Source: a virus (Duplodnaviria; Caudoviricetes). From it: a DNA stretch of 56,825 nucleotides. The position numbers were made by a program, and so were the translations under genes. Below are positions 2,579 through 3,945 of the stretch, piece after piece (positions within the stretch are counted from its first letter, which is position 1; each line of letters begins with the position of its first letter). Location of the stretch: the IMG/VR virus record IMGVR_UViG_3300017910_000654, positions 1 through 56,825 of that record; one strand, given 5' to 3'. The notes beneath the pieces were generated by a model. It did no database searches. It was not told where the DNA came from and saw nothing but the letters and a program-made list of their open reading frames with translations.

Positions 2579-2610
2579 TTTGGATATGTCGAAGGAAAGT
2601 ATTATCTTCG
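2579..2610 (+). promoter_or_regulatory. Bacteroidota-type promoter (-33 TTTG, -7 TATCTTCG)
   Basis: 20-nt spacer; same family as 752 and 1314. Confidence 0.7.
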
Positions 2611-2639
2611 TCTAATCAATCAACAATTATTTTCAAACC

Positions 2640-2669
2640 GAGGGTGGTGTCTTCAAGGACACCATCCTC
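2640..2669 (+). repeat. Extended hairpin with palindrome copy 5 (2647-2662)
   Basis: GAGGGTG-GTGTCTTCAAGGACAC-CATCCTC. Confidence 0.95.
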
Positions 2670-2685
2670 ACAAACATCAAACACT

Positions 2686-3753
2686 ATGTGTGTAATCATT
2701 ATCAAACAGAAAGGCAAGGATGTGCCGAGCAATGTGCTGAAGTCATCCGCAAGAATCAATCCTCACGGATTGGGTATCGTATGGTTGGATACGTTCAAGG
2801 TATCCTATCACGAGTCGAAAGAGTACAAGGTTCTTGAGACCAACAGACCATACATCGCTCACTTTAGATACGCGACAATCGGAAAGATATGCAAAGAGAA
2901 TATGCATCCGTTCGAGTGCGGTGTCAACAAGGATGAGTTGTTCATGATGAACGGAACAGCAAAAGGATACGGCAATGCCAACATGACAGACACCGAGGCG
3001 TTGGCTATCGAGTTGGGTAACAAGCCACGTTCGACATGGAAAGCAGAGTTGGCGAAGTTCGATGCGCGGTTCGTTGCAATCAACACAGCGAGACGAACGT
3101 TCCAAATATTCAACAAGCATTTGTTCACGCATCGTGATGGCGTGTGGTATTCGAAAGCCAATGTCCTACAGGACAATGTGGTTGCGGTGTACGGCACGTT
3201 GAAGCGAGGGTTCGGTAACTACTATAGCTACCTAACACGAAGCACGTTCTTGGGTAGTGGTCAGACCAAGGACAAGTATCCGTTAGTTGTTAGCGGACTG
3301 CCCTATCTGATGGAGAAGAAGGGACAAGGTCACAACGTTGCGGTCGATGTGTTCAAGGTTGACGATGACACGTTCCGACGATTGGATATGTTGGAGGGGC
3401 ATCCGAATTGGTACATCAGAAAGCAGATACCAATCATGATTAATCGCAGAGAGGTTATGGCGTGGATATATTTCAATCCAACAGAGAAGGGATTGTGGAA
3501 CGGCAAGAATCACGTCAAGTCCTACGAGGTTGGTCGGTCAGTATCCTTTTGGGATTTGCCCGAGCCAAAGTCAACACCGACGTGTACGCAGTTGGATTGG
3601 TTCGATGAGTTCGAGGCTAAGGTTGATGACCACGACGATATATGCATCGATTGCTTCAATGACTTGGAGTTCGATGGGTTTAGTAACTATCATTGTAAGG
3701 GTTGTGATAGTTGGTTTACTGAGGATGAGGTTGTTCGTTCACGTTTTCAGTAA
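2686..3753 (+). CDS. Class II glutamine amidotransferase fused to a gamma-glutamylcyclotransferase (AIG2-like) domain, with a C-terminal Zn ribbon
   Basis: Start MCVII gives an Ntn Cys2; NPHGLG, AHFRYAT, HPF, MNG and TDTE motifs; VYGTLKRG and LDMLEGHP GGCT motifs; CIDC..CKGC. Confidence 0.85.
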   Translation: MCVIIIKQKGKDVPSNVLKSSARINPHGLGIVWLDTFKVSYHESKEYKVLETNRPYIAHFRYATIGKICKENMHPFECGVNKDELFMMNGTAKGYGNANMTDTEALAIELGNKPRSTWKAELAKFDARFVAINTARRTFQIFNKHLFTHRDGVWYSKANVLQDNVVAVYGTLKRGFGNYYSYLTRSTFLGSGQTKDKYPLVVSGLPYLMEKKGQGHNVAVDVFKVDDDTFRRLDMLEGHPNWYIRKQIPIMINRREVMAWIYFNPTEKGLWNGKNHVKSYEVGRSVSFWDLPEPKSTPTCTQLDWFDEFEAKVDDHDDICIDCFNDLEFDGFSNYHCKGCDSWFTEDEVVRSRFQ

Positions 3754-3764
3754 GTGCAAAGGGT

Positions 3765-3780
3765 GTGTCCTTGAGGACAC
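3765..3780. repeat. Palindrome copy 6 (GTGTCCTTGAGGACAC)
   Basis: Extended stem 3762-3784; abuts hammerhead 2. Confidence 0.95.
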
Positions 3781-3784
3781 ATCC

Positions 3785-3833
3785 TCTGTCGATAGGTGTG
3801 TGCCTATCCTGATGAAGCGAAAGCAGAAACAGA
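3785..3833 (+). ncRNA. Type III hammerhead ribozyme 2 (short stem II variant)
   Basis: Stem III TCTGT/ACAGA, GTC (C3790), stem I GATAGG/CCTATC with loop TGTGTG, CTGATGA, A-GC-GAAA-GC-A, GAAA. Confidence 0.85.
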
Positions 3834-3852
3834 AATTTTTAAATCAAACATT

Positions 3853-3945
3853 ATGAATTTAACAGAGGTATTAATTATGGTTGGGTGCCTAGCGTATATC
3901 GCAGTCATCCTATACCAAGCAAGTAAAACAATGAACGATGAGTAA
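3853..3945 (+). CDS. 30-aa single-pass membrane peptide (MNLTEVLIMVGCLAYIAVILYQASKTMNDE)
   Basis: Hand-translated; hydrophobic helix; AT-rich leader after the ribozyme. Confidence 0.6.
   Translation: MNLTEVLIMVGCLAYIAVILYQASKTMNDE

Follow-up and report, generated by a model that had tools for sequence, protein, structure and literature searches.

What do hammerhead ribozymes do between the genes of a phage? The question is raised by a viral contig of 56,825 nucleotides (nt), hereafter the window (IMG/VR record IMGVR_UViG_3300017910_000654; Duplodnaviria, Caudoviricetes), which is one complete contig of 41% G+C without a terminal repeat. It carries two hammerheads, each placed behind a palindromic hairpin and ahead of a short A/T-rich leader; one belongs behind a gene for a putative glutamine-synthetase-like ligase (the ligase-like gene) and the other stands behind a gene that joins a probable glutamine amidotransferase to a gamma-glutamyl cyclotransferase-like domain (GATase-GGCT). 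A preliminary description had proposed that hairpin, hammerhead and a small membrane protein form a repeated module bracketing amidoligase-pathway genes; our analysis confirmed the observation and partly supported the interpretation. We consider it reasonably probable that hairpin, hammerhead and leader together constitute an RNA-processing signal, which would cut itself during transcription of a same-strand gene block. From the patterns described below we infer cleavage in the cell, protection of the new 3' end by the hairpin, and tuning of expression.

Fold analysis revealed that hammerhead 1 (44-94, + strand) is a type III ribozyme with a canonical core, composed of stem III (44-48/90-94), the cleavage-site nucleotide C17 at C49, stem I (50-56/61-67), CUGAUGA (68-74), and stem II (75-78/83-86), with a predicted cut 3' of C49. 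The Rfam model Hammerhead_3 (RF00008) matched it with 44.1 bits (E 2.1e-6) and aligned over positions 1-54, the whole model. Hammerhead 2 (3785-3833, + strand), also type III and identified by its fold and by covariation, has C17 at C3790, CUGAUGA at 3809-3815, and a stem II of only 2 base pairs (bp), G-C and C-G, closed by A3816.A3825 at positions 10.1/11.1; its predicted cut lies 3' of C3790. Both copies share with RF00008 the type III topology, the three helices, and the full core, that is, CUGAUGA, GAA followed by an A paired to U48 or U3789, and C49 or C3790. The standard pairs adjoining the core (10.1-11.1, 1.1-2.1, and 15.1-16.1) were present in hammerhead 1 (G75-C86 at the first of these), whereas hammerhead 2 departs from them at A3816.A3825. 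This A.A variant recurs at the same place in the related loci L001 and L003.

A covariance model of our own, R1, was built from six copies in three phages, both window copies included, and was run over the window with filters off; the two hammerheads scored 80.3 and 72.2 bits, and the next best match scored 13.4. In the six-copy alignment, which comprises the window and two relatives, the core was invariant, loop I was conserved, and the stems covaried: 8 of 16 pairs showed compensatory changes and 95.7% of cells were paired, which none of 500 shuffles equalled, while slid controls were 22-44% paired. Both window copies are thus genuine hammerhead folds as judged from their sequences, with self-cleavage predicted. 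The A/T-rich leader of hammerhead 1 occupies 95-120 (+ strand), up to the next start codon, and that of hammerhead 2 follows it at 3834-3852 (+ strand).

The hairpins that precede the ribozymes are built on a palindrome typical of this genome. Searching for GGTGTCYTNNARGACACC with at most 2 mismatches gave 17 matches in the window, where 0.01 were expected and none of 100 shuffles reached 17, and 16 of the copies contain the exact pattern GTGTC-N6-GACAC. Four of them concern the genes studied here. The copy at 25-42, GGTGTCTTCAAAGACACC, lies inside hairpin 1 (18-48, + strand), which in the minimum-energy fold of 15-100 adds an outer extension to the core palindrome and whose 3' arm continues into the 5' strand of stem III of hammerhead 1. 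The copy at 3764-3781 forms the core of hairpin 2 (3756-3789, + strand), which begins 3 nt past the GATase-GGCT stop. A third copy (2646-2663), with covarying flanks that include G.U pairs on the + strand, forms a hairpin at 2640-2669 (+ strand), 17 nt before the GATase-GGCT start, and an exact copy of the palindrome, GGTGTCCTCAAGGACACC, stands at 56326-56343 (+ strand), 21 nt upstream of the ligase-like start. The two modules reported earlier, including their small hydrophobic ORFs, were accordingly found where they had been placed; with the full hairpins they span 18-312 and 3756-3945, and the hammerheads are backed by covariation; the GATase-GGCT gene does have a palindrome hairpin on its 5' side and palindrome plus ribozyme on its 3' side, and the hairpin described before the gene at 56365 exists.

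Other copies of the palindrome differ in their surroundings. Those inside genes, at 5754, 10768, 19319, 43725, and 53037 among others, have no flanking stem extension. Palindrome, G/C-rich flanks, and a T-run come together at 13846-13890 (+ strand) and 36563-36606 (- strand), an arrangement that resembles an intrinsic terminator and occurs once per strand. At hairpins 1 and 2 the next element is a ribozyme and not a T-run, unlike at these other copies, where T-runs do follow (13854, and 36581 on the minus strand). By eye, among the examples inspected, the central TTCAAA loop appeared to be conserved between lineages with differing stems.

The placement of hammerhead 1 depends on how the ends of the window relate. 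The ligase-like gene (56365-56825, + strand) is present as its 5' part of 153 codons, an open reading frame (ORF) that is open at its 3' side and runs off the contig. In L001, whose GGCT protein is 95% identical to that of the window, the sequence is contiguous over the junction, and a gene for a protein of 344 amino acids (aa) is followed by its stop, the palindrome, a hammerhead (44.7 bits with Rfam), and the same 63-aa ORF that follows hammerhead 1. The first 153 codons of this gene match the window's open ORF. The order in L001 therefore places the break of the window within the ligase-like gene, with about 190 codons absent as estimated from the 344-aa homologue. Judged from this sequence comparison, the window ends are neighbours except for the gap inside that gene, and the succession of ligase gene, palindrome, and ribozyme 1, which had been offered on the condition that the ends adjoin, is directly seen in L001. 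A DNA contig from a public sequencing run, X1, reaches about 620 nt upstream of window position 1.

To place the units in a wider set of phages, relatives were surveyed with one protein profile for each enzyme gene. The ligase-like profile found 86 viral loci, 80 of which were kept; 76 hold the 3' end of the gene and 70 of these are non-duplicate. With the GATase-GGCT profile, 80 of the 141 loci found were retained. A hammerhead begins 14-67 nt past the ligase-like stop in 51 of the 70 non-duplicate loci and 27-67 nt past the GATase-GGCT stop in 39 of 76 unique loci. R1 matches numbered 112 (at least 43.7 bits) in the ligase-like loci and 143 in the GATase-GGCT loci, and all of them (112/112 and 143/143; 255 strong matches in both surveys together) lie on the strand of the genes. 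In all five genomes rated 96-100% complete (58-65 kb), the 18 matches, 3-4 in each, fall inside one stretch of 2.2-3.7 kb. Ribozymes at unrelated positions in relatives would have spoken against the preliminary description; instead, they keep to the same two places. Clustering on one strand between genes, as in the phages of the survey published in 2011, is seen in the window with two copies as well as in these five relatives.

A tree of the ligase-like proteins showed the ribozyme in all three ingroup subclades and an outgroup without it. Absences were scattered over the tree and amount to 8 changes, of which no fewer than 3 are forced, a distribution that fits old presence with repeated loss; gains may also have occurred. 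The copies at the two sites further differ in stem II. Of the copies that follow the ligase-like gene, 44 of 57 have a G-C pair at 10.1/11.1, as do 63 of 85 copies elsewhere, vs only 10 of 37 after GATase-GGCT, where U.U (19 of the 37) and A.A (7 of the 37) were found at these positions. This site-specific weakening of stem II may reflect a tuned, slower ribozyme behind GATase-GGCT.

If the units process RNA, cutting at C49 and C3790 would leave an upstream message (that of the ligase-like gene, or the stretch ending with GATase-GGCT) whose 3' end consists of the hairpin and then a tail, about 6-9 nt long, that terminates in a 2',3'-cyclic phosphate. Such an end would resemble that of a terminated transcript while RNA polymerase continues. 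The downstream message would begin with a 5'-hydroxyl, followed by the folded ribozyme body, a leader of 15-26 nt, and AUG. Adjacent cistrons would in this way gain separate, defined ends and, as a likely effect, separate stabilities and translation. Excerpts of the 2011 survey by Perreault et al. (PMC3088659) contain what we count as precedent, namely that tandem phage hammerheads cleave native transcripts of about 2 kb in vitro and that the 5' end of a halovirus transcript lies at most 3 nt from the cut site of a hammerhead, which precedes a start codon by 13 nt.

The hairpin proved to be a general partner of the ribozymes. With a hairpin defined as at least 5 bp and dG ≤ -6, ending at most 3 nt from the ribozyme, 152 of 180 unique ribozyme contexts had one, compared with 62 of 540 positions drawn at random from these loci. 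GTGTC..GACAC was present in 126 of the 180 contexts, and the remainder had other G+C-rich hairpins typical of their lineage.

The element behind the hairpin was more variable. When both strands were scanned for the structure, 36 further unique hammerheads of type I came to light; all 36 are on the gene strand, and each has a long stem III hairpin and a predicted cut 1 nt past it. Stem III holds GTGTC..GACAC in at least 6 of these copies (L005, L012, L016, L020, L021, and L039), and in several others it is a hairpin of the kind typical of the respective lineage. Within a single 6-kb locus, L024, as many as four type I copies accompany one type III copy. A type I copy at L003:3576-3640, at the same place as L005:1795-1860, has a stem III made of the palindrome GGTGTCC..GGACACC and is predicted to cut 1 nt before the AUG of an ORF at 3637-3891, which would yield a near-leaderless mRNA.

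In some relatives without a ribozyme there, the slots of hairpin and hammerhead hold tRNA-like minihelices with the T-loop GGTTCGAYTCC. They stand directly past the ligase-like stop in L030 (3367-3410) and L033 (3364-3410) and after the hairpin and GATase-GGCT in L135 (3604-3700), L150 (3607-3700), and L162 (3622-3690), and one more was placed at 985-1060 of L002. In each, a linker 9-11 nt long connects an acceptor-like stem to a T-arm, and the element often lies 2-5 nt past the house hairpin; about 10 of 17 tRNA-like sites inspected by eye have a hairpin immediately upstream. ARAGORN detected no tRNA gene in 13 ribozyme-poor loci, and the T-loop elements are therefore described as minihelix-like. 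L002 also has a tRNA match of 38.4 bits at 11093-11201 with a 47-nt insertion in the anticodon region that contains CTGATGA...GAAA; ARAGORN finds no tRNA in L002. In six other relatives (L105, L120, L127, L133, L155, and L156), the same hairpin and then a T-run occupy the GATase-GGCT site.

The RNA would end just past the hairpin in all of these forms, which is why we think of the hairpin-terminated upstream fragment as the selected product. The conserved feature looks like a cut immediately 3' of the hairpin, and the hairpin-ended enzyme mRNAs that had been predicted to result from cleavage would fit both the hairpin rule and the replacements at the same slot. We tentatively extend this to the proposal that the cut site is conserved and not the cutter, so that three unrelated devices, namely type III copies, type I copies (in which the hairpin is stem III), and tRNA-like substrates of RNase P or Z, would be interchangeable in severing the transcript shortly past a lineage-specific house hairpin at the two enzyme genes; at present we hold this broader statement to be possible, at somewhat less than even odds.

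Attention to the other side of the cut leads to a different explanation, in which cleavage serves downstream translation: a 5'-hydroxyl end, capped by a fold some 20 nt ahead of the AUG, would aid or gate ribosome loading, and type I copies would give nearly leaderless mRNAs. The spacing between ribozyme and start codon is indeed tight, the next ATG lying mostly 15-26 nt past the ribozyme (174 cases), and the predicted type I cut of L003 next to an AUG agrees with it, as does the halovirus hammerhead 13 nt before a start codon (PMC3088659). Self-cleavage enables cap-independent translation in eukaryotic RNA viruses, according to excerpts of PMC13725137, but this precedent is from eukaryotes. 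The genes downstream are mutually unrelated, and the near-universal upstream hairpin and the U-tract replacements indicate the upstream fragment as the selected product. We regard a primarily translational purpose as quite improbable.

In its full form, the reading of the preliminary description would assign the ribozymes functionally to the amidoligase pathway: a dedicated operon for altering the host surface or excluding superinfection, in which cleavage would deliver enzyme mRNAs and 5'-hydroxyl mRNAs for membrane peptides in set proportions. The positions in the survey speak for such an operon, since the hammerheads of the clade are confined to one stretch, whose limits are the ligase-like and GATase-GGCT genes, and stand directly after both. 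In the most distant relatives, L083-L087, the two enzyme genes adjoin, with GATase-GGCT directly 3' of the ligase-like gene, and this adjacency indicates that they are linked functionally. For the corresponding phage cassette, excerpts of PMC5498523 propose an alteration of the cell surface.

The membrane peptides are a further point in its favour. In the window, the 63-aa hydrophobic ORF (121-312, + strand) has a 94% identical copy in L001 and is the positional counterpart of small membrane proteins of one or two segments that follow the ligase-like gene in relatives; the two copies differ by 6 synonymous and 4 non-synonymous codon changes, a coding signal too weak to judge. The 30-aa hydrophobic ORF (3853-3945, + strand), with one predicted membrane segment, has a stop that overlaps the start of the next gene (3938) and a copy at 8013-8105 of L001. 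Among small-ORF pairs from relatives, codon position 2 changes least. A small membrane ORF came next after 54 of 174 ribozymes vs 87 of 824 in the control, a 3.8-fold enrichment whose P value is overstated, as the statistics ignore shared ancestry and the control is noisy, containing spurious alternative-frame ORFs and related sequences.

Divided by site, however, the membrane ORF followed 31 of 57 hammerheads at the ligase-like gene, but GATase-GGCT sites gave only 6 of 37 and all other sites 16 of 82. What lies beyond the ribozyme is mostly a variable gene for a soluble protein (30/37 after GATase-GGCT, 65/82 elsewhere): L001 has three soluble-protein genes between hammerhead 2 and the 30-aa ORF, and L003, from which the 30-aa ORF is absent, has soluble-protein genes after hammerhead 2. 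Conversely, a small membrane ORF follows the ligase-like gene in 7 of 19 ribozyme-free loci and in L002. It is thus the ligase-like gene, and not the ribozyme, that the small membrane protein often accompanies, and this protein cannot be kept as a constant part of the module. PaP3, described below, also has a hammerhead away from its amidoligase cassette. A ribozyme-punctuated pathway operon appears unlikely to us.

The wide variation in gene content between the two enzyme genes would suit yet another explanation, that hairpin-ribozyme-leader units are chiefly portable joints for swapping cassettes between co-infecting phages, with RNA cleavage secondary. In L001, each of the three extra genes (7150-8012, compared with 3850-3857 of the window) is preceded by a copy of one short leader, a pattern that suggests cassettes inserted where the leader is repeated. 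The 16-nt palindrome is near-identical even where the ligase-like proteins are only 40-50% identical. Contigs from public runs skip whole small-gene cassettes (454>744, 1367>2104, 1372>1550, 1375>1567, 1621>1750, 1624>2104, and 1965>2097), and their joints sit at leaders or start codons; these joints, for example 454>744, 1367>2104, and 1624>2104, count weakly in favour of exchange, as the contigs were matched at 88% likeness with short sides and related phages or repeats possibly account for them. Portable joints would not, however, preserve a catalytic core and compensatory stems across 180 unique copies, and they leave unexplained both the exclusive orientation along the gene strand and the fact that in some relatives another RNA-cleavage device has taken over the site. 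We consider cassette exchange as the chief function to be improbable, even more so than the pathway operon.

The two ribozymes of the window have the same orientation and bracket a segment of 3.74 kb (49/50 to 3790/3791), and 5'-hydroxyl and 2',3'-cyclic phosphate ends are substrates for RtcB-type ligases. The RNA between two cuts might then be circularised or spliced by such a ligase of the host, a possibility raised by Perreault et al., the excerpts of whose paper also report that no such products were detected (PMC3088659). No back-splice joint at the cut sites was found among the public-run contigs examined, and many relatives have a single copy or an odd number of copies. Of all the explanations considered, this one seems to us the least probable.

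Several observations weigh against the processing signal itself. A type III copy is missing in 19 of 70 ligase-like loci and in 37 of 76 GATase-GGCT loci, and a search of L002 (about 50% identity) returned zero hammerheads; because so many loci, and L002, do without a type III copy at these sites, the ribozyme is dispensable. Related phages share ancestry, and the counts given above are of non-independent events. Recognition of the copies is also at stake. Hammerhead 1 falls under the curated gathering cut-off of RF00008 (48.5 bits) and Rfam, searched at E ≤ 10, does not report hammerhead 2. The latter has the core-adjacent mispair that served as a ground for discarding candidates in the 2011 survey, according to its excerpts (PMC3088659). 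Only 2 of 53 R1 matches in 20 loci exceed the Rfam cut-off, and since most score below it, routine annotation would overlook nearly all copies. The palindrome is spread genome-wide, with several copies within coding regions, so that it is not specific to the amidoligase pathway. Because its sequence is strongly conserved and copies lie inside genes, an additional role at the DNA level or in protein binding is suggested, and protection of 3' ends leaves that role unexplained.

Thermodynamic models, run on 146 copies of 55 nt, add to these objections. The short, open stem III had a mean pairing probability of 0.28 in native surroundings, compared with 0.71 in the isolated ribozyme and 0.26 when the sequence upstream was shuffled. 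The 3' tail predicted to be unpaired on the upstream product was no shorter than after such shuffling (median 3 nt vs 2 nt); as modelled, the native hairpin is neither favoured nor distinguished. A specific competition between hairpin and stem III, acting as a switch or by 'strand capture' after cleavage, was considered and dropped, as shuffled upstream sequence gave like values.

A hammerhead was also found in phage PaP3 (L170). R1 matched a type III copy with U.U at 10.1/11.1 in positions 45416-45470 (- strand; 53 bits). It immediately precedes orf71, the first early gene, and lies about 8-12 kb from the amidoligase cassette; a location beside that cassette, which had been a candidate, was ruled out. 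A second, weak candidate scored 12.1 bits at 44070-44125 (- strand), and Rfam at E ≤ 0.1 reported no hammerhead at either site. A PaP3 hammerhead figures among the active variants in excerpts of PMC3088659 and may or may not be the R1 copy.

Comparison with described systems showed which features are shared. Clustered hammerheads flanking phage genes were published in 2011 (PMC3088659), and the window does not represent an undescribed kind of system, as had been suggested. In the excerpts of that survey, as here, a phage transcription unit has several sense-strand hammerheads between its genes, long transcripts are proposed to be processed into mRNAs the length of a gene, and slower variants in or near the core occur in phages. 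The genes flanked there are not constant according to these excerpts, whereas here the hammerheads are tied to two genes clade-wide. They are further distinguished by their restriction to one stretch of 2-4 kb, by coupling to an upstream hairpin, by scores mostly under the Rfam cut-off, and by being interchangeable at their slot with type I copies, tRNA-like elements, and U-tracts. The 'HHphage' hammerhead of haloviruses HF1/HF2 likewise precedes the start of an early gene (helicase) by a short, fixed distance, but it is a salt-dependent variant of an archaeal virus, and the excerpts describe neither an upstream hairpin nor a link to an enzyme cassette (PMC3088659).

The cassette of phiEco32-, LUZ24-, and PaP3-like podoviruses is alike in that a ligase, a class II amidotransferase, and a gamma-glutamyl cyclotransferase are among the early genes; excerpts of PMC3890496 and PMC5498523 list amidoligase, glutamine amidotransferase, GGCT, and ATP-grasp genes and propose modification of the cell wall or exclusion. 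The form found here differs in having two genes, one for a GATase and GGCT fusion and the other from a ligase family outside the Pfam models, and in that its hammerheads adjoin the cassette, unlike the hammerhead of PaP3. Our literature search did not find the pairing of hammerhead and amidoligase, which may stand in the gene lists of Roth 2014 or Weinberg 2015. A 2019 review (PMC6765202), in its excerpts, calls the role of bacterial and phage hammerheads largely elusive and their gene associations undetermined. What was known since 2011, by the excerpts of PMC3088659, is that hammerheads flank phage genes and that transcript processing may be their purpose; what is new is that the ribozymes are linked to two genes across the clade, that a hairpin rule spans three kinds of cutter, and that stem II has a variant form specific to one site.

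Intrinsic terminators share with these units an RNA 3' end just past a stable hairpin, and the same palindrome with a T-run occurs in the window and six relatives; behind the two enzyme genes of the window, by contrast, a ribozyme takes the place of the U-tract and the predicted cut would fall during ongoing transcription. Structured RNAs between cistrons also set cut sites and uncouple genes in mitochondrial tRNA punctuation and in synthetic insulators such as RiboJ, which are functional analogues from other systems; homology is not implied. The clade supplies hundreds of natural replicates, with fixed positions, the hairpin rule, swaps between ribozyme, tRNA-like element, and terminator, and the site-specific weakening of stem II, and such replicates make the processing of polycistronic RNA predictive as to which end is protected, and why. 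If the cut site is indeed what is conserved, the units would be a phage counterpart of tRNA punctuation and would give hammerheads a concrete job, the making of terminator-like, hairpin-protected 3' ends without stopping transcription, which might be specifically needed to dose the envelope-modifying enzyme pair and a small membrane partner. If this is wrong, the locus is still a well-documented yet ordinary case of phage hammerheads.

The identity of the ligase-like protein was examined at the level of sequence and predicted structure. Its full-length homologues in L001-L003 have 344, 336, and 313 aa. No Pfam family matched at E ≤ 0.05 (three full-length homologues) or 0.01 (the part in the window), the Amidoligase_2 model (PF12224) included; NCBIfam and PHROG gave no match, a PDB sequence profile search gave 0 matches, and none of 120 listed homologues has a Pfam domain or name. 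An AlphaFold (AF2) model built from 61 homologues reached a pLDDT (predicted local distance difference test) of 90.7, and the top 35 Foldseek matches were nearly all glutamine or gamma-glutamylmethylamide synthetases, then Dop/PafA; the best E was 5.8e-5 and prob 0.99-1.0, but TM (template modelling) scores were just 0.2-0.3. Residues E72, E74, E92, E100, H143, E214, and R216 were invariant in the 61 sequences. When aligned by hhalign with PaP3 Orf46, itself an Amidoligase_2 protein at 22.7 bits, the GFEVE, GxEA, C..H, and EFR motifs coincided without statistical support (E 0.087, probability <1%). What supports the label amidoligase is the predicted glutamine-synthetase-like fold, and the protein is therefore best described as a putative glutamine-synthetase-like ligase and not as a confirmed member of Amidoligase_2.

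The GATase-GGCT protein (2686-3753, + strand; 355 aa) consists of an N-terminal Met-Cys domain, a GGCT/AIG2-like domain, and a Cys-rich C-terminus. The second domain (residues 166-266) matched PF06094 with 78.5 bits against a cut-off of 22.8 (Pfam GGACT, 7.9e-22), and PHROG 2520 and the PDB entry 1vkb (6.3e-14) were matched as well. The N-terminus reads MCVIII, with the Cys directly after Met; GATase_4 matched this domain at 15.7 bits, under its cut-off of 23, and other class II amidotransferase signals were weak (PHROG 4736, 2.6e-5; GFAT chains, E 0.4). It is probably a class II glutamine amidotransferase. The combination recalls the cassette of phiEco32- and LUZ24-type phages, for which a change of the cell surface is put forward as a hypothesis in excerpts of PMC5498523.

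Public runs containing the window sequence carry the labels seawater or marine metagenome, and a search for similar phage records gave a single weak match, outside the region under study. Contigs of two metatranscriptome runs from one study, X19 and X20, cover parts of 744-3700 and 1286-4265, respectively; these are contigs of RNA libraries in which DNA is possibly present, and no inference on cleavage or expression is drawn from them. No X19 contig spans 3745-3888, although contigs are unable to show RNA ends, and one X19 contig joins the hairpin and the 5' part of the ribozyme of a relative into window position 54. A possible clue to the host, a Bacteroidota-type promoter consensus, was abandoned with 3 matches vs 2.2 expected (36 of 100 shuffles reach 3), and no host is claimed. 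Away from the enzyme genes, the window codes for a Cpn60-type chaperonin (5.3e-56), a Cpn10 (9.7e-8), an M23 peptidase (3.3e-28), one tRNA (69 bits), a PDDEXK-like DUF3799 protein, and a DnaA-C helix-turn-helix (HTH) protein, a set located at 51838-53705 (-), 53741-54388 (-), 54621-54694 (-), 5864-6670 (+), and 4732-5019 (+).

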